Shown here in pieces: positions 1-35,774 of a stretch of 64,000 nt of DNA. Numbering within the stretch: position 1 is the first letter of the stretch; each line of letters starts with the position of its first letter. The translations under genes were made by a program, and so were the position numbers. The stretch lies in the sequence record OZ035771.1. One strand, given 5' to 3'. Under the pieces are notes generated by a model. That model was not told the DNA's origin. It ran no database searches and was given only the letters and a program-made list of their open reading frames with translations. The stretch comes from Phapecoctavirus DIJ07P2.

Positions 1-2625
1 TACATCTTTGATAGTGCTATTGTTACGATCAATGGTGTTATTCAGGTTCTGGGGGAAGCTTTCCGTATAGAAGATAGTAAGATCATCTTATCTGAACCTT
101 TGGGACACGATCCTGCAACAGGGCTGCCAAACAAGCTTTTTGCTTATATTGGTAAAATCGTAGCTTCAGCAGATACAGATCCTAATCTAGAGAACCGTCT
201 TGTTAGTTTAGAAACAAAAACGGAAGAACTAACAGAAAGCATGGATAAAGTCCCTCTGCAAACTATTGCTCGTAAATATGGTTTGTTAGATGATGAGGTG
301 GCTTACGCAACAGCAGGTCAATCGTTAACAGGGATTAAAGCTCTGTATGATCCAGTAGCACAGTCTTCCTACACATTACCTCCTAACATCGCAGGAACTT
401 TAACATCCTTGTCTGTTTCTGGAGTAATGACTTATTCTGGGGGGTCTGTAGATCTTTCTGCACTAGCTGTTGAACGTGGACAGTTTGTTCATTTGCCTAC
501 AAGCTTTGGTAATAACGTAACTCTGACAGCTAAAAATCAGACGATTGGACGTGGTGCTGGTCGTTATCGTTGGGCTGGAAGTTTACCAAAAAGTATTTTG
601 GCCTCTGATACATTGGAGACAAGCGGTGGATTAGGTCCAAATGCATGGGTTCTGACCAATACAGAAGGACTGTTAACCCCTCGTGGTGGAACATACAACG
701 ATTTATTCGATGTTGTCTACTTGTCAGAATTTGCTAACAACACAACAACATATACCACACCAGAAGCGGCTTTCCAAGCGGCACTGTTAGCAGCAAAAGC
801 TTCGAAAAGCAAGATTCTCGATGCTTACGGTTGCGATATGACTTTCACGACAAGCTCTTTTGATATTCAAGGTATCACTTTGCGTGGGGGTGTGTTCCGT
901 GGTCAACGCGACTATCGTGTGCAAAATGCTACAGTAGAAGGCACAACTTTCCGTAACTCTCGTGTTATGTATTGGGGTGGTGCTGTGCGCATGTTCGATT
1001 GTTTGTGGGACGGTGCTCCTCGCGCAGGTCAAGTTGGTAGCTTGGTATTCCAAGGCAACCCAATATCAGGTACTTTTGAAATTGATAATTGTACTTTTAA
1101 AAATGGGTTATATGGCATCCTTCAACAAGGAACAGGGAAACCAGTAACACGCGGTGTCTTCCGTAACCTTACCTTCATGGATATGCAAGGTGATGCAATA
1201 GAACTGAACGTCATCAATAAACATTACGATGATGGTTGTGTGATTGAGAATATTTACCTGTCTAATATCGATGGGACTAACGCTCCTATTCCTCTGTCCA
1301 ACTGGGGTATCGGTATCGGTGTAGCTGGTAAAGGACCATATGGTTACGGAATCCCTGATGATCAATATTGCAAGAATATTACAATTCGTAACGTTTTTGC
1401 AAAACGTTGCCGTCAGATTGTCCACGTAGAAGTTGGTCGTAATATTTCTATCGAAAACATTCATGGCGATCCAGATCAAACCGTATCTGTTGGGACAGGT
1501 TTGGCAACTGGCGCAGTTGTAATGTATGGAAGTAAAGATTTTACGATTGACGGTGTTTATGGAGAGCCTAAAACAGACGGTAGCACACTTGCAAGTAATA
1601 TCCGTATGATTTATTTGGAGTGGGGAACTAACGCAGTTCTGGACGAAGAGGGTAATCCGGTAGTTCCGGCACAGGGCAGACCTTCAAACCCATGCTTTAA
1701 CTATTCTGTTCGTAACATTCACACCAAAACTGGGCGTGTTTTTGCAGGAGTTTCCGCTGGGCCAGGCTATGAAAACAGAGTCAGCTTTGAGAATATCCGT
1801 TGTGCTGCGTTGCAGTTGTTCGGTGTAGCTTCTTGGCTTTCAATGTCTAACATCACCTGTAATATCTTTGATTGTGTTGGTCAACCTGAATCTGGTCCAG
1901 GAACATTTTATGACGGATTCTTCCGTAGAGAAAAATCTGTTCTTGAGATGGTTAACGTAAACTGTTACCCAGATGGCAAGACGATGGTTACTGGTCGTCC
2001 ACAGTGGAGCCGTTGCCGTTACTCGGATATTCATCGTGTCAACTGTAATGTTGAAGCTAATATGTATACCAATATCGCAGGTGGTATTGGAGCTATTGTA
2101 GGGACAACGGGCAAAGTTTATTACTTAGAGCCTAATCCTAGTCGAAACATTGATGGAATGCATTTCCCAACAGGGAAAGAGTTTGACAAAGGTGATATGA
2201 TAGTCAAAGCGGATAATACGTTCTTCCTTGTAACAACAAGTGGGGCATATATTCCAGATATCCCAGCTTTCGGTATTCGAGCTACACAGGCAGGAGATAC
2301 CTTCCTGACACAGAACTTGACTCCTAACGGGACAGCAACAAATGCTTCTTGGTTGTATCATTACCCTCTGTCAGCAGGGACACGTATCCGTATTCCTGGT
2401 GCTGGCGTAGGTGGAGCAGATTTGGACACAGTTATTACTCGTGCACCTTATCAAGATAATGATACGTGGACTAACCCAGTTAAAATAGACATTGCAGATC
2501 CAATTGTAACGCCTACAAGTGCTGGAGTTAGAATTAAAACCATACCTAATGATTCCAGTAATGTTTCTGTAGGTAATACTGCGGTTATTCGCCCAACGCC
2601 AGTAGTAGATGTGCCAACAACCTAA
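1..2625 (+). CDS. tailspike/tail fibre-like protein with parallel beta-helix-type repeats; 5' end lies upstream of window
   Basis: frame open from nt 1 into track ORF 100..2625; Gly/Asn/Thr-rich; repeated rung-like motifs (NITIRNV, ISIENIHG, VRNIHTK, VSFENIRC); hairpin terminator follows. Confidence 0.5.
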   Translation, partial: YIFDSAIVTINGVIQVLGEAFRIEDSKIILSEPLGHDPATGLPNKLFAYIGKIVASADTDPNLENRLVSLETKTEELTESMDKVPLQTIARKYGLLDDEVAYATAGQSLTGIKALYDPVAQSSYTLPPNIAGTLTSLSVSGVMTYSGGSVDLSALAVERGQFVHLPTSFGNNVTLTAKNQTIGRGAGRYRWAGSLPKSILASDTLETSGGLGPNAWVLTNTEGLLTPRGGTYNDLFDVVYLSEFANNTTTYTTPEAAFQAALLAAKASKSKILDAYGCDMTFTTSSFDIQGITLRGGVFRGQRDYRVQNATVEGTTFRNSRVMYWGGAVRMFDCLWDGAPRAGQVGSLVFQGNPISGTFEIDNCTFKNGLYGILQQGTGKPVTRGVFRNLTFMDMQGDAIELNVINKHYDDGCVIENIYLSNIDGTNAPIPLSNWGIGIGVAGKGPYGYGIPDDQYCKNITIRNVFAKRCRQIVHVEVGRNISIENIHGDPDQTVSVGTGLATGAVVMYGSKDFTIDGVYGEPKTDGSTLASNIRMIYLEWGTNAVLDEEGNPVVPAQGRPSNPCFNYSVRNIHTKTGRVFAGVSAGPGYENRVSFENIRCAALQLFGVASWLSMSNITCNIFDCVGQPESGPGTFYDGFFRREKSVLEMVNVNCYPDGKTMVTGRPQWSRCRYSDIHRVNCNVEANMYTNIAGGIGAIVGTTGKVYYLEPNPSRNIDGMHFPTGKEFDKGDMIVKADNTFFLVTTSGAYIPDIPAFGIRATQAGDTFLTQNLTPNGTATNASWLYHYPLSAGTRIRIPGAGVGGADLDTVITRAPYQDNDTWTNPVKIDIADPIVTPTSAGVRIKTIPNDSSNVSVGNTAVIRPTPVVDVPTT

Positions 2626-2686: not shown

Positions 2687-4711
2687 ATGAATTTAACAAG
2701 ACCTAATAGTGCGATAGCCGATCTGGTAGAAGCTACTTATCGAAAACGTCGCAGCTTTGAGGCAGGTTTTACATTACGTAATTCCCGTGAAGTTTTGCTG
2801 TTAGCAGCAGAAGGGAATTATTACCAATGGAAAGGAACTTTTCCTAAAGTAGTTCCAGCAAACTCTACGCCAGCCACCACAGGTGGTATTTCTTCCCTTG
2901 CATGGCAAAGTGTTGGGACCGCTGATGATATAGCAATTATCAATGCCAAGTTTACGGCAATGCAGCAACAGATTGATGATCTGTCGGAAACAATACCTGA
3001 AGCTGGTAAATCGGCTTATCAGATCGCACTTGATAATGGTTTTGTTGGAACAGAAGCACAATGGCTTGCTTCTTTGAAAGGGGATACTGGTGCTCAACTT
3101 AATATTAAAGGATCATTAGCAAGCACTAGTGAACTACCATCTACAGGTAACGTAGCAGGTGATGGTTATATTGTAGGAGATGTAATCTACGCGTGGGATG
3201 GGGCTGTTTGGAAACTTATTTCTTCTCTTGGACCAGAAGGGAAATCAGCTTACGAGGTATGGTTGGCAGAGGGTAATACAGGATCTGTTTATGACTTTCT
3301 TGCCTCTATAAAAGGTGATAAAGGAGACGTTGGTCCTACAGGTCCACAGGGTGCACCTGGTGTCAACGCTAATGGTTTTGATTACCGTGGAGATTTGCCT
3401 TCTACAAGTAACTTACCACAACCTAACTCTGAAAACGTAAGCCAAGCTTATTCTATTAATGGTAATCTTTATGTCTCTAATGGGACAGCTTGGGTCAACA
3501 TGGGTAATATTGTTGGTCCTCAAGGTCCACAAGGTGAGGCAGGTAAAGACGGTCTAGATGGAACAGATGGAGACGAAGGGAAATCTGCATATCGAAGTTG
3601 GCTGGACGCTGGTAATGAAGGGACAGAAGTAGATTTTATTGCCTCGCTTAAAGGTCCAAAAGGAGACAAGGGAGAGCAAGGAGAACGAGGACCACAAGGC
3701 GAATTAGGTCCACAAGGACCAGTGGGTGCAACAGGATCAGGTTTAGAGATTATCGGGGTTCTGAACAGCGAAGCTGAACTTCCTCCGACTGGAGAAGTAG
3801 GTGATGCATATAAAATTAATAATGATTTGTATGTTTGGGTTCAAGATGCTACAGAATGGATGAATGTTGGCAGTCTTGGAGGAACATCAATTACAGCCAA
3901 AGGTCATGTTCCGAACAGCGAGGCTCTCCCTGTTTATAATAACTATGGTGATGCCTACTTAACTGAAGACACTAGTAATCTTTACATCTATACCTACGAT
4001 CAAGACACCAATTCCGCATCTTTTGTTGACATGGGAAGTATTAAAGGTGACAAAGGTGAAAAAGGGGATAAAGGAGATAAGGGTGATCCTGGAACAAACG
4101 GAACCAACGGTACTGATGGGACCAACGGTAAGGACGGCGCACAGTGGTTTGTAGCAACAACTAATCCAGTCGCAGGAGATGGTGTTATCAATGATTACGC
4201 CTTCAATACTACCACTGGGGCAGTGTTTAAGAAAACGGACTCTTCTACGTGGACACTTATAGGAACTCTTCCTAGTATACCAGAAGCTCCTCAAGACGGG
4301 TTGACTTATGGTCGCTCTGATGGAGACTGGATAGAAATATCGGGGTCAGATCCTACGGAAGCTATAACACCAACTAGAGTTACAGCAGGTTTCATGGAAC
4401 TTGAAACAACTACTGCCAACTCTGGAGCATCTTGGACTCCTTCTGGAACTTCCAATATGTATGTTGTTACAGTAACTGACGCTTTGACAGTTGGAGCATG
4501 GCCTGGTGTTACGAGTTCTACAAAACCTAAAGCATTTTCAGCAATGATTTATTTGATTCAAGATACAACGGGACACACGGTTACACTAGATGCGTCTTAT
4601 GGAGCACTGAATGATACAGAAATAGCAACTACTGCTAACGCAGTAACAATTTTGCAATTAACGTATCCTGGTGTGGGTGATATCGTGGACATGGTTGTTG
4701 TAACACGATAG
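2687..4711 (+). CDS. tail fibre protein with collagen-like Gly-X-Y tracts and internal repeats
   Basis: ATG 2687 with SD taggagag; Gly-X-Y runs (KGDKGDVGPTGPQGAPG; KGPKGDKGEQGERGPQGELGPQGPVGATG; KGDKGEKGDKGDKGDPGTNGTNGTDGTNGKDG); 3-4 repeats of GKSAY..W...G..G...F.AS.KG. Confidence 0.6.
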   Translation: MNLTRPNSAIADLVEATYRKRRSFEAGFTLRNSREVLLLAAEGNYYQWKGTFPKVVPANSTPATTGGISSLAWQSVGTADDIAIINAKFTAMQQQIDDLSETIPEAGKSAYQIALDNGFVGTEAQWLASLKGDTGAQLNIKGSLASTSELPSTGNVAGDGYIVGDVIYAWDGAVWKLISSLGPEGKSAYEVWLAEGNTGSVYDFLASIKGDKGDVGPTGPQGAPGVNANGFDYRGDLPSTSNLPQPNSENVSQAYSINGNLYVSNGTAWVNMGNIVGPQGPQGEAGKDGLDGTDGDEGKSAYRSWLDAGNEGTEVDFIASLKGPKGDKGEQGERGPQGELGPQGPVGATGSGLEIIGVLNSEAELPPTGEVGDAYKINNDLYVWVQDATEWMNVGSLGGTSITAKGHVPNSEALPVYNNYGDAYLTEDTSNLYIYTYDQDTNSASFVDMGSIKGDKGEKGDKGDKGDPGTNGTNGTDGTNGKDGAQWFVATTNPVAGDGVINDYAFNTTTGAVFKKTDSSTWTLIGTLPSIPEAPQDGLTYGRSDGDWIEISGSDPTEAITPTRVTAGFMELETTTANSGASWTPSGTSNMYVVTVTDALTVGAWPGVTSSTKPKAFSAMIYLIQDTTGHTVTLDASYGALNDTEIATTANAVTILQLTYPGVGDIVDMVVVTR

Positions 4712-31272: not shown

Positions 31273-31743
31273 TTAATCTGATTGCCAACCACTTGCCGTT
31301 TTGGTCCATAATCTTTGATTATCTGACCCTCTGAAAGGTTTTGTAGTTGGATTGTTTATTTCATACTTTCCGTCTACAATAATGTCAACAAGATTTTTAA
31401 TATATAAAGGCACTTCCTCAAAAGTATATCCTGTATACACCATTATATCTTTGCTTGACCCATAAACGTCTCTAACCTTTTCTATAAGGCTTTTAACATT
31501 GTAAATATTCTGCGGATCTAATGGTTCTCCTCCTAAAATTGTTAAACCTTTTACAAACGGTCTTGACAAATCTTTTAAAACTTGCTCTACATTTTCGTGA
31601 GTAAACGGTTTCCCGTAAGAATAAGACCAGGCTTTTTGGTTAAAACAGCCACGACAACCGTGGCTACAACCACTAACCCAGAGGGAGCACCTAACTCCCT
31701 CGCCATTAATAAGATCTACAGGTTCATATCCTGCAAAATTCAA
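31273..31743 (-). CDS. nrdG: anaerobic ribonucleotide reductase activating protein (radical SAM)
   Basis: CxxxCxxC cluster CSHGCRGC near N-terminus; about 156 aa; immediately downstream of nrdD; TTG start in TTGA overlap with nrdD stop. Confidence 0.8.
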   Translation of the reverse strand: MNFAGYEPVDLINGEGVRCSLWVSGCSHGCRGCFNQKAWSYSYGKPFTHENVEQVLKDLSRPFVKGLTILGGEPLDPQNIYNVKSLIEKVRDVYGSSKDIMVYTGYTFEEVPLYIKNLVDIIVDGKYEINNPTTKPFRGSDNQRLWTKTASGWQSD

Positions 31744-32711
31744 AGATGTTTCTCCCTTTGCAAAACTTCCTGCATTTTACCTTTGTTGTAAGGGCGTGAA
31801 TTAGGGGCAGAAAGATACCCTGACACACGTCTAACTACAGAAATAGTTTCTTCTTCATGGTTGCCACAATCAGGACACTCAAACCCTTTAGCCGTTGCCT
31901 TAAATTCTCCATGAAAACCACACTTAAAGCATTGATCCACGGGCTGATTAATACCAAAATAGTGAATATGTTCATAAGCGTAGTCTACTAAAGTCTCCAA
32001 AGCTTCTAAGTTATTCTTTAAGTTTGGTGTTTCGACATAACTTATGTTACCACCATTGCTAATCTGTGCAAAACCTGCTTCATAATCCCATTTTTCAAAA
32101 GGATTTGTTACCAACCATACAGGTTGGTGAAAAGAGTTGGTAAGATAATCTCTTTCTACCAAACCTGGGTATTTTTCATTTAAAGCTGTTGCAAACTTAT
32201 AGCACAAGGATTCTGCTGGAGTTCCATAAAGACTAAACGCCAAATTAGATCGTTCTTTAAACACAGCACACACATCTTTCATATGTTGCAGAATGCTTTT
32301 ACCAAGTTCCTTTTTATCTTTTTCTTCTGGATAAAGGATTTCCAAAGCTTCGGCAAGACCTACATAACCAATACTAATAGAAGCATAACCACCTTCAAAC
32401 AAAACACCAATTTCATCATTGGCATTTAAACGCGCTAAAGCCCCTTCCATGAAAAGAATAGGGTTTTCAGATGCTTTGGTATGCCTAATACGGTTTACAC
32501 GTAACATGTGAGCATCGTAGGCTATCTCCATATGTTTATTAAGGAGGTCGGTGAAAGATTCTCCTTTACTTCTCGCTTCCGCAGCAATCAGAGGTAAATT
32601 GATAGAAACTACTCCAAGGTTGAATCGTCCATCATATTTTTCTCCTTGCTCTGTTGCATAGTATGACAAGAAACTTCTACACATTATGTTCAAAGTGGCT
32701 CGCAAGGCCAC
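31740..32711 (-). CDS. nrdD: anaerobic ribonucleotide reductase, C-terminal part (glycyl-radical domain)
   Basis: C-terminal Cys4 (CFKCG...CPDCG) and glycyl-radical motif RVSGYL; separated from N-terminal part by HNH endonuclease insertion. Confidence 0.75.
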   Translation of the reverse strand: MALRATLNIMCRSFLSYYATEQGEKYDGRFNLGVVSINLPLIAAEARSKGESFTDLLNKHMEIAYDAHMLRVNRIRHTKASENPILFMEGALARLNANDEIGVLFEGGYASISIGYVGLAEALEILYPEEKDKKELGKSILQHMKDVCAVFKERSNLAFSLYGTPAESLCYKFATALNEKYPGLVERDYLTNSFHQPVWLVTNPFEKWDYEAGFAQISNGGNISYVETPNLKNNLEALETLVDYAYEHIHYFGINQPVDQCFKCGFHGEFKATAKGFECPDCGNHEEETISVVRRVSGYLSAPNSRPYNKGKMQEVLQREKHL

Positions 32712-33442
32712 TCCCGCACCATTACGTGCTGCTGCATGTCACCATGCAGATCAGACTATATCTTCATGCTTAAAGCATGTCTACCATTTGGGGTGTCATA
32801 GGCTTACACCCTACGCTGCTACATTCATCACAGCTAGTCGTTAGGCATTTCGTAACAGAACTCATAATCATAATTATTTGGTGCTCCTTGCTTTAAGATT
32901 GCAGATATTCTTTTTCTGTCCAACCCTAAAGCGTCAGCACAACATCTCAGACTTTTAAAGTAAAAAACTTCACCAGTAGCCTTATGAGTAGCTTTTACAC
33001 TGTGACACCTTGTGTAGAAAGCATAACAGTTATTATCGTAACCCTCTTGCGTGTTGTCTGGACAAGATCCCCACTCAAGATTGTATACACTGTTGTCTTT
33101 CCTATTGTCACCTTTATGCTTCACATAAGGTAAATTGTCTGGATTGGGTAAAAACGCTTCAGCTACAAGTCTGTGCACCCGAAAGCAAACAGTTTTCTTG
33201 TTTTTACGTATTCTGACAAGTTGGTATCCTGTGTTTATTTCTTCCCACGAGCGAAGGATTCTTTCATCCTTATACCTGGTACAATAAACATTTCCAAGCT
33301 CGTCAATTTCATACCCTTCAAAATCACGAATTTGTTTTCTCATATCAGTACCCCCTTCTTCTGTGTTGGGAGTTCTGTTACGTTTAGCACGGGATTGTCT
33401 CTGTTGAGAGTTCCCCCGTTTAGGCAGATTTTACATGAGCAG
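32712..33442 (-). mobile_element. intervening sequence in nrdD carrying an HNH homing endonuclease gene (group I intron or free-standing insertion)
   Basis: about 730 nt between the two NrdD reading frames; roughly 100-120 nt of non-coding flank on each side of the HNH ORF. Confidence 0.5.
32834..33343 (-). CDS. HNH homing endonuclease
   Basis: FRVHRLVAEAFLPNP...KHKGDNRKDNSVYNLEW pattern typical of phage HNH endonucleases. Confidence 0.65.
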   Translation of the reverse strand: MRKQIRDFEGYEIDELGNVYCTRYKDERILRSWEEINTGYQLVRIRKNKKTVCFRVHRLVAEAFLPNPDNLPYVKHKGDNRKDNSVYNLEWGSCPDNTQEGYDNNCYAFYTRCHSVKATHKATGEVFYFKSLRCCADALGLDRKRISAILKQGAPNNYDYEFCYEMPND

Positions 33443-34324
33443 TTATAGTTTACCCATACTCGTAACGGTACCATCTGCTGATCCCGTAACTTCTTTGTTC
33501 AAAGGGACAGAAATAAAATCTGGATAAATACGATCAGCACAACATGCCAAAGCTTGTTGCTTAAGGTCGTAGTTAGGATCACTAGGTTTCATGTTAACAC
33601 CTTCTTGTAAAAAGAAAATAACTTTAGGGAATACAGGCGTTACATGATCTTTGCCTAGACCGTTACTATGCACTTTAAGATAGTTAGCTGTGATCATTCT
33701 GCCAAAAACAGAGGTATCCAGACCCATACTGATTGTAATAAAAGGAGATTGTCCATTAACACTCATTAAAGTGTTAACCTGATACAAAAGAGTTTGCATA
33801 GCGTCATATACATCTTGTTCGGTCATTTCTAGGGCTTCTTTCCTTGCATAACAACCGTAGCGACGTTTGGTTATCTCCATGTTTTTAAGGAAACTGGCTT
33901 CAACATAAGGACTAAGACCTTTATCAATGTGCGCACACGTCTGACCTCCATACTGACTGGAGGCAACAGCTTGAATGATTTGAGTTAGCACTGTAGTAGC
34001 TACTCCAATAGATTTTGGTTTTTCTATCTGTGCAGCACCGATCTTAAAACCATTCTCTAACATATCTTGATAATTAACAAGACAACAGTTTGTAAGAGGA
34101 GAGAGTAGGTAATCCAAGTCGTGAATATGTCCAAAACCTTCTGTATGCCATTCTGACAAGTTTTTTGGCAGTATCTGTGTCATTGCCATATGTTTGCTTA
34201 AAATCCCCGCCAAGAGATCTCTATGCGTGTTAACGAGGTGGGAAGGTTTGTTTGCATTCTCTCTAGTGTATGTTTCTGAAGTGCGATCTAAAAAAGAAAA
34301 AACATCTTGGTACAAATCTTTCAT
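33443..34324 (-). CDS. nrdD: anaerobic ribonucleotide reductase, N-terminal part
   Basis: 293 aa frame immediately upstream of insertion; combined length with C-terminal part about 616 aa, as expected for NrdD; assignment rests on context and length. Confidence 0.55.
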   Translation of the reverse strand: MKDLYQDVFSFLDRTSETYTRENANKPSHLVNTHRDLLAGILSKHMAMTQILPKNLSEWHTEGFGHIHDLDYLLSPLTNCCLVNYQDMLENGFKIGAAQIEKPKSIGVATTVLTQIIQAVASSQYGGQTCAHIDKGLSPYVEASFLKNMEITKRRYGCYARKEALEMTEQDVYDAMQTLLYQVNTLMSVNGQSPFITISMGLDTSVFGRMITANYLKVHSNGLGKDHVTPVFPKVIFFLQEGVNMKPSDPNYDLKQQALACCADRIYPDFISVPLNKEVTGSADGTVTSMGKL

Positions 34325-34390: not shown

Positions 34391-34417
34391 AAATCAAAAA
34401 AGGCGCAAAGTGCGCCT
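34391..34417 (-). terminator. rho-independent terminator (possibly bidirectional)
   Basis: aggcgcaaagtgcgcct hairpin flanked by A-run upstream and T-rich tract downstream on plus strand. Confidence 0.5.
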
Positions 34418-34427
34418 TTAAGTTTTA

Positions 34428-35774
34428 TCATTTGGAGAGGAATTGTCTTCCCATGATCTTACCGTTCTTCACAGCAGTCCCATCGTGTCCATTGTAATCC
34501 CAGGTTCCATCGATATTACGCAAGAAGCTATCACGAACAGTATAGGCTTTACCGTTCTCTACTTTACTTTCTTCCACAATGATTGCCATAACAAGCTTAT
34601 TTTCAATTTCGGTAGTAACCGATTCTTTGATACCCTCTGTAACTTCACGATCATATTGGATATAAACTCGCTCCTCGGTTACTTGCACGTCTACCACATT
34701 TTTAAATGTGTAGGTCTGTTGCGTAGTGTAGAGGACACGAACGACACTCTTCTTACCTACTGGCGGCTTCTGACGACGCTTGCGGTAACGTGGAGACGGG
34801 TTAAGTTTAATATAACCTACAATATCTGATCCATCTCCAGAGTGGCTCCAATACAACGTCTCTGCCAACAAACCTTTTCCTTGGTCCCCATTTCGAAAAA
34901 GAACATTAACAGGACCATCACAAGGGCGTCTACCTCCGATGTGGGCTTGGTATTTTGCTGTTCTTGGGAGAACAAAATATTCTTCAATCTGCCATTCACT
35001 ATCGTATTTCTCCCATTCAAAGTGGTTGGCTTTACATACTTCTAAAACACCATTTTTGTAACGGACTTGAACAAAGTCTTCACAAGGTTGAATACCTGTA
35101 TTAGGAATATAGGTAGGCTCTGTGTCTTCTGGTTCAAAAGTCTCTTTTTGTTGTTCCACATCTTCCACTTTTCTTACATGCTTAGTATAAAACATATCTT
35201 TAAACTCCTGTGCTTCAACCTCAACTGCAAATTCATGTTCTCTGACAGCCGGAGGCACAAGGCTTCCACACTCAAGATGTAGAGCATCCAGACCTGCCAT
35301 TTTATCGTAAAAGATAACTTTTCGATACTTCTTACCGTCTTCTGGAATAGCAGGGTCTACTCGTTTAAGACGGGAAGCATCGCTTTTAGTCCAAAAACTC
35401 TTCCCTGTTGTATTATTGAAAGTAGTAATCATTTCTTCAATTTCTTCTTCAGAAAGGTTACTAGTGTCTGTGTAAACATCTTCAATTTTTAGCGTTTTAG
35501 TTTTCTTAAAAATTAAATCTAGCATTGCATCTCCTGTAAAACGTAGTTCATTATCTCCTACTGTCGGCTCTCCAGTAAATTCATCGGTCCCAACTGTGTG
35601 ACAGATGTATGGAAAATTTGTGCAACCGTGTAAAAGAGCATATTGTCCTGTAAGTTTAGGATCTGTCTCTTTAGTCCAACCATATGCAATCTCAATAGCT
35701 TTGCAAAGCCTATCAAACAAGCCACGATTGTTTGCCGCTGTTACCAAATCCTGTTTATGTGCATATACATTCAT
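34428..35774 (-). CDS. hypothetical protein (448 aa)
   Basis: track ORF; no motif recognised. Confidence 0.5.
   Translation of the reverse strand: MNVYAHKQDLVTAANNRGLFDRLCKAIEIAYGWTKETDPKLTGQYALLHGCTNFPYICHTVGTDEFTGEPTVGDNELRFTGDAMLDLIFKKTKTLKIEDVYTDTSNLSEEEIEEMITTFNNTTGKSFWTKSDASRLKRVDPAIPEDGKKYRKVIFYDKMAGLDALHLECGSLVPPAVREHEFAVEVEAQEFKDMFYTKHVRKVEDVEQQKETFEPEDTEPTYIPNTGIQPCEDFVQVRYKNGVLEVCKANHFEWEKYDSEWQIEEYFVLPRTAKYQAHIGGRRPCDGPVNVLFRNGDQGKGLLAETLYWSHSGDGSDIVGYIKLNPSPRYRKRRQKPPVGKKSVVRVLYTTQQTYTFKNVVDVQVTEERVYIQYDREVTEGIKESVTTEIENKLVMAIIVEESKVENGKAYTVRDSFLRNIDGTWDYNGHDGTAVKNGKIMGRQFLSK

Follow-up and report, generated by a model that had tools for sequence, protein, structure and literature searches.

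A predicted mobile group I intron with an HNH endonuclease gene lies directly before the active-site cysteine codon of nrdD in a phAPEC8-like coliphage

Phage T4 carries a mobile group I intron with an intron-encoded endonuclease in its anaerobic ribonucleotide reductase (RNR) gene, nrdD (sunY) (PMC2988022). That intron lies inside codon Tyr180, in phase 1, and its endonuclease, the GIY-YIG enzyme I-TevII, is encoded in the P9.1 region, after P9. The T4 td intron has the open reading frame (ORF) of its GIY-YIG endonuclease, I-TevI, in the P6a loop, and the ribosome-binding sites of T4 intron endonucleases, td included, are sequestered in hairpins (PMC2988022). Here we describe a 770-nt insertion in the nrdD gene of Phapecoctavirus DIJ07P2 (sequence record OZ035771.1), which we studied within a stretch of 64,000 nt, referred to below as the window. 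Judged from its sequence, the insertion is very probably a mobile self-splicing group I intron of the T4 nrdD (sunY)/td lineage.

Several other phage systems bear on this case. The DNA polymerase intron of Bacillus phage SPO1 encodes an HNH endonuclease, I-HmuI. In Aeromonas phage Aeh1, the RNR gene nrdA is interrupted by an HNH endonuclease gene, mobE, and is annotated as two ORFs; it has no self-splicing intron and yields two polypeptides that form a functional RNR (PMC3653736). HNH-bearing introns of a related Vequintavirinae phage have been found by reverse transcription-PCR to be spliced, and in phage CB7 four insertions were spliced while one HNH-containing insertion was not (PMC7344957). 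The rV5 paper describes terminase introns only, and these phages fall outside the phage RNR survey.

The nrdD region of the window is on the minus strand and is 98.8% identical to that of Escherichia phage nepoznato (Phapecoctavirus); the window is thus from a phAPEC8-like coliphage. The ORF list and Pfam profiles bore out what a preliminary description of this DNA had reported: nrdD frames of 293 and 323 amino acids (aa), an HNH ORF between them, and a C-terminal RVSGYL motif (Table 1). The flanks of 100 to 120 nt given there for the HNH ORF also agree with the spacers we found, of 99 and 122 nt, but the interval 32712-33442 marked only the ORF ends. In an alignment with the uninterrupted nrdD gene of phAPEC8, the insertion is a single clean gap of exactly 770 nt, with the junctions ...AGU AUG GGU / AAACUAUAAC ... 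GAACAUAAUG / UGU AGA AGU..., so that it is preceded by U and ends in G. It falls between the codons for Gly291 and Cys292. The exons therefore encode 291 and 313 aa, 604 in all; the upstream frame ends in 2 codons of intron sequence, and the downstream frame begins with 10. The preliminary description had summed the two frames to about 616 aa, equal to a normal NrdD; 12 of these codons are intronic.

With the insertion removed, nrdD encodes an uninterrupted 604-aa NrdD that is identical to the phAPEC8 protein at 602 of 604 positions and aligns end to end with the crystallized T4 NrdD (PDB 1H78; E = 5e-168). Exon 2 opens with the codon for Cys292, a residue that aligns with Cys290 of the T4 enzyme. 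In class III RNRs this is the thiyl-radical cysteine of the active site, and the insertion therefore directly precedes the catalytic cysteine codon.

The gene would also be interrupted by an intein, by an element for translational bypass, or by an artifact of sequencing or assembly, and nothing beyond the interruption itself speaks for any of them. The insertion is 770 nt long and has a gene of its own, and the same insertion is present at 99.5 to 99.9% identity in ten independent GenBank records. Furthermore, the exon 1 frame meets a stop two codons into the insertion, which makes read-through into an intein impossible. On the grounds of the in-frame stop and the ten independent records, we rejected all three explanations, to which we give practically no credence.

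Table 1. Features of the nrdD locus in the window. Coordinates are window positions; paired RNA strands are given 5' to 3' as transcribed.
Feature	Coordinates	Strand	Details
nrdG (activating enzyme; context)	31273..31743	minus	Pfam Fer4_12 and Radical_SAM; phAPEC8 annotation
Downstream nrdD frame	31740..32711	minus	323 aa from GUG; NRDD profile positions 263-562 and Gly_radical domain, ...RRVSGYL...
nrdD exon 2	31740..32681	minus	Codons 292-604 and stop; starts UGU (Cys292); holds glycyl-radical motif RVSGYL
Co-conversion tract	32644..32681	minus	Exon 2 nt 1-38; no difference from intron-bearing Justusliebigvirus VEcB
Predicted group I intron	32682..33451	minus	770 nt; T4 nrdD-like IA type with P7.1/P7.2; first base 33451, terminal G 32682
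3' core half	32692..32839	minus	P7 5' strand GACUA 32835..32839; P7.1; P7.2; P3 3' strand 32780..32785; P8 32765..32779
3' core half, continued	32692..32839	minus	P7 3' strand UAGUC 32754..32758; P9 32732..32749; P9.1 32716..32729; P9.2 32692..32714
Predicted HNH homing endonuclease gene, intron encoded	32834..33343	minus	169 aa; P6a loop, intron nt 109-618
P6a 3' strand GUUCUGUUACG	32851..32861	minus	Within 3' end of endonuclease ORF
Hairpin over endonuclease Shine-Dalgarno sequence	33350..33373	minus	ACUCCC with GGGGGU; -14.2 kcal/mol, z = -2.84
P6a 5' strand CGUAACAGAAC	33372..33382	minus	Perfect 11 bp with 32851..32861 across endonuclease ORF
5' core half	33389..33428	minus	P3 5' strand UCUGCC 33423..33428; P4 33414..33419 with 33389..33394; P5 33406..33409 with 33398..33401
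Internal guide sequence GCUCAU	33435..33440	minus	Intron nt 12-17; pairs with exon AUGGGU to form P1; identical in T4 nrdD intron
UAA stop of exon 1 frame	33443..33445	minus	Two codons into intron, in P1 loop; frame stops at codon 294
Proposed P10 intron strand CUAUA	33444..33448	minus	Intron nt 4-8; pairs with UGUAG, first five bases of exon 2 (32677..32681)
Upstream nrdD frame	33443..34324	minus	293 aa; Pfam NRDD profile positions 1-263
nrdD exon 1	33452..34324	minus	873 nt, codons 1-291; aligned with intronless phAPEC8 nrdD; Pfam NRDD 1-263
Predicted spliced junction		minus	...AGUAUGGGU joined to UGUAGAAGU...; protein ...VTSMG-CRSF...

A search of the window against Rfam matched the group I intron family RF00028 at positions 32732..32971 with 39.7 bits (E = 7.6e-8 in the 4-kb region and 1.2e-6 in the whole window). 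This was the only RNA family hit in the 64 kb, and with these E values the pattern is not one of chance. Alignment of the core with the T4 nrdD intron gave 70.5% identity over 87% of its length. Like that intron, it includes the stretch GCUCAUGUAAAAUCUGCCUAAA without a change, contains P7.1 and P7.2, and has no P2 hairpin between P1 and P3. It also resembles the td intron, which has a similar core, an ORF in the P6a loop, and the same 3' end, GAACAUAAUG; td differs in its host gene, its GIY-YIG endonuclease, its P2 hairpin, and its guide sequence.

We then assessed the secondary structure across ten cores from which the ORFs had been excised, namely those of the window, phi92, the rV5-like phage HMD-6, Avunavirus 24-2-1, T4 nrdD, Felixounavirus BPSELC-1, Vibrio phages F99 and 10AMN, T4 td, and an Aeromonas phage terminase intron. 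RNAalifold independently recovered P3, P4, P5, P7.1, P7.2, P8, P9, and P9.2, with compensatory changes at 33 of 55 pairs. Our full model comprised P1, P3 to P6a, the P7 pseudoknot, P7.1, P7.2, P8, P9, P9.1, and P9.2, and as a control we slid the pairing partners by 1 to 3 columns. In the model, 94.3% of cells were paired, compared to 38 to 45% with slid partners, and 38 of 75 pairs had changed on both sides, compared to 7 to 11; none of 500 shuffles reached the observed values. The P7 helix showed a U-A to C-G change in 2 of the 10 sequences, and both-sided changes affected four of the five pairs in P7.1 and four of the six in P7.2. The presence of P7.1 and P7.2 between P7 and the 3' strand of P3 defines subgroup IA in the Michel-Westhof classification. 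The minimum-energy fold of the ORF-less form, computed from the single sequence, had the same helices (z = -4.05).

These counts are conservative for some helices. MAFFT misaligned the strands of P6a, P9.1, and P1/P10 in the more distant introns, so these helices were undercounted in the covariation test, and we checked P1 and P10 separately by duplex folding. RNAalifold also proposed an additional 4-bp helix between UGCU (intron nt 11 to 14, overlapping the guide) and AGCA (nt 722 to 725, just 3' of P9), in which one pair varies between U-A and A-U. This helix may be due to chance, and we left it out of the model because it competes with both P1 and P9.1.

The splice-site pairings expected of a group I intron can be drawn at both ends of the insertion. 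The guide sequence pairs with the last six bases of exon 1, AUGGGU (33452..33457), in a 7-bp duplex of -6.0 kcal/mol, in which the terminal U of exon 1 faces G12 of the intron as the U-G wobble at the 5' splice site. At the other end, the intron closes with ...CAUAAUG, the terminal G being at the 3' splice site. In two relatives with an intron at the same Gly/Cys site, P10 is 8 bp long: UGUAGAGC with GCUCUAUA in BPSELC-1 (-11.3 kcal/mol) and UGCCGAUC with GAUUGGCA in Vibrio phage F99 (-12.2 kcal/mol). The intron strand of P10 thus covaries with exon 2 in these phages, which is hard to explain unless splicing is under selection. The exon 1 frame ends in the P1 loop, so ribosomes on unspliced RNA should stop before they reach the ribozyme core. 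The T4 introns likewise stop the exon 1 frame just inside the intron.

The ORF within P6a overlaps the ribozyme, its last six codons, GAA AUG CCU AAC GAC UAG (stop included), being P6/J6-7/P7 core sequence. Its product matched I-HmuI (PDB 1U3E) over the full length in a phmmer search (E = 8.7e-9) and PHROG 59, an HNH endonuclease family, with an E value of 3.8e-34. Like I-HmuI (174 aa to the 169 aa here), it is encoded by a phage group I intron and combines an HNH motif that has the His and two Asn with a probable C-terminal NUMOD/helix-turn-helix part; the overall identity is low and the target gene is a different one. The general-base His and the two Asn of I-HmuI all align. The I-HmuI structure paper reportedly gives catalytic roles to this His, the Asp before it, and the two Asn. 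In the protein from the window, an Asp stands three residues after the His, and the same x-H-x-x-D arrangement is found in the homolog from Vibrio phage F99. A comparison with the 84%-identical copy in phage HMD-6 gave a synonymous divergence (dS) of 1.13 and a nonsynonymous divergence (dN) of 0.05, and the dN/dS ratio of 0.044 shows that the endonuclease protein is under purifying selection.

We looked across related phages to see how the insertion is distributed. Most Phapecoctavirus genomes, including that of the type phage phAPEC8, have an empty nrdD site and match the region in two pieces with about 770 nt missing. The intron with its ORF is present in nepoznato, nieznany, and 536P1, in the Justusliebigvirus phages VEcB, arall, phiWec187, and SD2 at 99.2 to 99.9% identity, and at 84% identity in HMD-6 (unclassified in its record), JEP1, and other coliphages of about 140 kb. 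An ORF-less form occurs in phi92, cardinal, ECGD1, and PD06. The phi92 intron (FR775895/NC_023693) occupies the same site in the same subfamily, Stephanstirmvirinae, with the same ribozyme, but it is a 279-nt intron without an ORF, whereas the copy in the window has, in P6a, a 490-nt insertion that carries the HNH gene. The 3' 177 nt of the phi92 intron match the window exactly, and the 5' parts are distinguished by one base, in the P5 loop. In all, the intron family is found at this site in six lineages: Phapecoctavirus, Justusliebigvirus, the rV5-like HMD-6 and its relatives, Avunavirus, Felixounavirus, and Vibrio phages.

The introns of the window and Justusliebigvirus VEcB are identical at 767 of 769 positions (99.7%), yet their exons share just 73% and 77% identity. 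Exon 2 nevertheless begins with 38 nt that do not differ between the two, and exon 1 has no comparable tract. Measured against the intronless phAPEC8 gene, exon 2 has 8 differences in its first 30 nt, all of them synonymous, where the background is 2.1% (P = 1.6e-7), and the bases linked to the intron include the UGUAG of P10. The near-identical introns, the divergent exons, and the exon 2 tract together indicate recent homing across genera with one-sided co-conversion.

Some further observations were made on these relatives. The Salmonella phage BPSELC-1 (Felix O1-like) has its related intron at about 1352..1756 of its stretch (56 bits in Rfam), with a P6a extension that has no intact ORF. 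In Vibrio phage F99 (1..3669 of its stretch), the annotation splits nrdD into at least four pieces and adds two genes for HNH endonucleases. The HNH-bearing intron at the Gly/Cys site accounts for one of the breaks, and its endonuclease, like that of the window, ends in ...EMPND. Vibrio phage vB_VibM_10AMN has four tandem Rfam group I hits in about 1.2 kb (468..1612; individually 468-612, 672-927, 1011-1329, and 1386-1612), separated by very short exons of an unannotated host gene. Avunavirus phage 24-2-1 has a second nrdD gap of about 360 nt between annotated fragments (2739..3097), across which there was no Rfam group I hit; the gap may stem from a different type of element or from faulty sequencing. 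Finally, a set of records labeled as Campylobacter jejuni phages (MG065639-MG065690, 'Campylobacter phage' A110a, A13b, A135, A138, A140-A142, A145, A147, A150, B15, C2, C3, and C7) have nrdD regions near identical to those of Escherichia coli phages of the phAPEC8, phi92, and HMD-6/JEP1 types, and their host labels look doubtful.

A number of observations weigh against an active, mobile intron. The RF00028 score of the window lies under the gathering score of 50 bits, and the match misplaces the 5' half of the core within the ORF. The proposed P10 is just 5 bp long and lies 3 nt away from the P1 strand. An in-frame UUG at 32705 follows an SD-like (Shine-Dalgarno-like) GGGAG at a distance of 5 nt, so that some independent translation of the C-terminal part may occur. 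Both Pfam matches of the endonuclease fall just below their cutoffs (HNH_3, 22.0 versus 24.8; I-HmuI_NUMOD-like, 25.4 versus 27), and Asp74 of I-HmuI, the residue before the catalytic His, is replaced by Lys. Lastly, our literature search returned no paper on this intron and no RNA or protein evidence for it or for any 99%-identical copy.

The low Rfam score and the misplaced 5' half are accounted for by the ORF, a 510-nt loop that splits the core at P6a. As a control, we scored the td intron, a proven self-splicer that also has its ORF in P6a, and it reached an equally subthreshold 39.3 bits, compared to 105 bits for the T4 nrdD intron. The phi92 copy, which is in effect a natural ORF-less version with the same site and core, scored 70.6 bits (E = 5e-18), above the gathering score.

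If the ribozyme were inactive in vivo, or if the endonuclease gene were free standing, the insertion would stay in the mRNA and NrdD would be made as two polypeptides that assemble into an active enzyme, one of 293 aa ending in ...SMGKL and one of about 321 aa starting from a UUG or GUG inside the insertion. Both frames are indeed open, and the RefSeq records of nepoznato, nieznany, and VEcB (NC_052658, NC_052663, and NC_052659) list nrdD as two coding sequences (CDSs) and call the endonuclease a hypothetical protein; only the phi92 record, among the annotated relatives, has a joined CDS, marked 'spliced variant'. The split RNR of Aeh1 and the unspliced insertion in CB7 provide precedents. In the window, however, the ORF is surrounded by an entire covarying group I core whose P1 and P10 match these very exons, whereas the Aeh1 gene has no self-splicing intron. 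The preliminary description had offered a free-standing endonuclease as one of two possibilities, citing a GGGAG and an ATG ahead of the downstream frame. Neither withstood analysis as a start signal: GGGAG belongs to the 5' strand of P9.2 (GGAGUGG with CCACUUU), a helix that covaries across the family and has the UUG in its loop, and the ATG is the last three bases of the conserved intron 3' end, ...AAUG. In BPSELC-1, whose intron is at the same site, the interval from the last stop to exon 2 lacks any in-frame start, and F99 has the terminal AUG only. Starts therefore vary at this site while the ribozyme is kept, which means that translation signals are not conserved. In the ORF-less derivatives, the ribozyme is retained and the 3' core is 100% identical, as would be expected if the gene depends on splicing but not if the spacer were inert. 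A break at this position would also part the catalytic cysteine, the equivalent of T4 Cys290, from the strand that precedes it. We consider it very unlikely that NrdD is made in two pieces.

The other possibility raised in the preliminary description, a group I intron with a homing endonuclease, is the one that the exact insertion, the restored NrdD, the covarying core, and the covariation of P10 with exon 2 in relatives strongly support, and the P1-to-P9 structure search suggested there succeeded, with a core found from P1 to P9.2. The likeness it drew to the nrd introns of T-even phages is apt, although the insertion site, about 111 codons downstream of that in T4 nrdD, and the endonuclease family, HNH rather than GIY-YIG, are different.

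The intron might splice and still be immobile in this lineage, fixed there with an HNH gene that no longer encodes a homing endonuclease and is a decaying passenger or serves as a maturase only. The Lys in place of the metal-binding Asp74, the subthreshold Pfam scores, and the derivatives in which the ORF has been lost are all consistent with this idea. A decaying gene is hard to reconcile with a dN/dS ratio of 0.044 over copies that are 84% identical, a value indicative of selection on the protein. Similarly, an intron identity of 99.7% between genera whose exons diverge by about 25%, along with the sharply bounded exon 2 tract, points to a very recent transfer of the endonuclease type. The F99 homolog shares x-H-x-x-D, which makes the substitution look like a trait of a subfamily and not like decay. 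Loss of the homing function thus seems unlikely to us, less so than the making of NrdD in two pieces.

In the mobile, self-splicing intron that we favor, a single nrdD pre-mRNA would be transcribed, and the guide GCUCAU would pair with AUGGGU at the end of exon 1 to form P1. The P3 to P9 core would fold, with the long P6a arm closing around the endonuclease ORF. An external guanosine would then attack after the U of the U-G wobble, P10 (UGUAG with CUAUA) would align exon 2, and the exons would be joined after the terminal G. The predicted product is an mRNA for one NrdD of 604 aa, in which the radical-bearing Cys292 comes directly after Gly291. On unspliced RNA, the exon 1 frame would end two codons into the intron and the ribosome-binding site of the endonuclease would be held in a hairpin, as in td; with both in place, translation should rarely enter the ribozyme core. 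The I-HmuI-like HNH protein of 169 aa would presumably cut or nick intronless nrdD alleles in mixed infections, and repair would copy the intron and the first 30 to 40 nt of exon 2 into the recipient.

How two related introns came to occupy two sites in nrdD is a separate question. The introns of the window and T4 nrdD are sister ribozymes that have the same guide, GCUCAU, at codons 291/292 and 180, respectively, facing the exon targets AUGGGU and AUGAGU, and their endonucleases are unrelated and lie in different loops. Guide-directed transposition by reverse splicing, which would produce such a pattern, may have moved the ribozyme from one nrdD site to the other, the endonucleases being acquired separately afterwards; we regard this as rather unlikely. 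Ectopic homing driven by an endonuclease would predict a shared guide less directly than reverse splicing. Since the spliced nrdD of the window has three ATG[AG]GT sites, the shared guide could also just reflect selection for sites that permit splicing.

Other signals at the locus were examined as well. Among sigma-70-like promoter matches in the region, TAGACA-17-TATAGT (32783..32755, minus strand; 10 of 12 positions) is the best, and it could in principle drive exon 2 independently. We treated it as a coincidence because it lies within the conserved P3'/P8/J8-7 core and the number of matches was no higher than in shuffles. Downstream of nrdD, nrdG begins at a UUG in a 4-nt overlap with the nrdD stop codon (TTGA, 31740..31743), as annotated in phAPEC8, which suggests translational coupling. 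At 34399..34419, between nrdD and a 448-aa ORF (34428..35774, minus strand), a 9-bp GC-rich hairpin is followed on both strands by a T-run and resembles an intrinsic terminator that would act in both directions; it has a weak, subthreshold Rfam match to STnc40.

The nrdD intron is a member of the T4 nrd/td intron family that is new in its site and its endonuclease and is otherwise an ordinary, partly annotated example of a well-known kind of selfish element. It leaves current understanding unchanged. For annotation, it means that the nepoznato, nieznany, and VEcB records ought to show nrdD as a single joined CDS and include an intron feature and a homing endonuclease gene. For the biology of these phages, it adds a further case to a familiar pattern, in which mobile introns sit at the most conserved, catalytically essential codons of phage nucleotide metabolism genes and, when they pass from one phage genus to another, take a short piece of the adjoining exon with them. 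This one site is found empty, with an endonuclease-bearing intron, and with an endonuclease-less one, and it may provide a natural series for studying the homing cycle.

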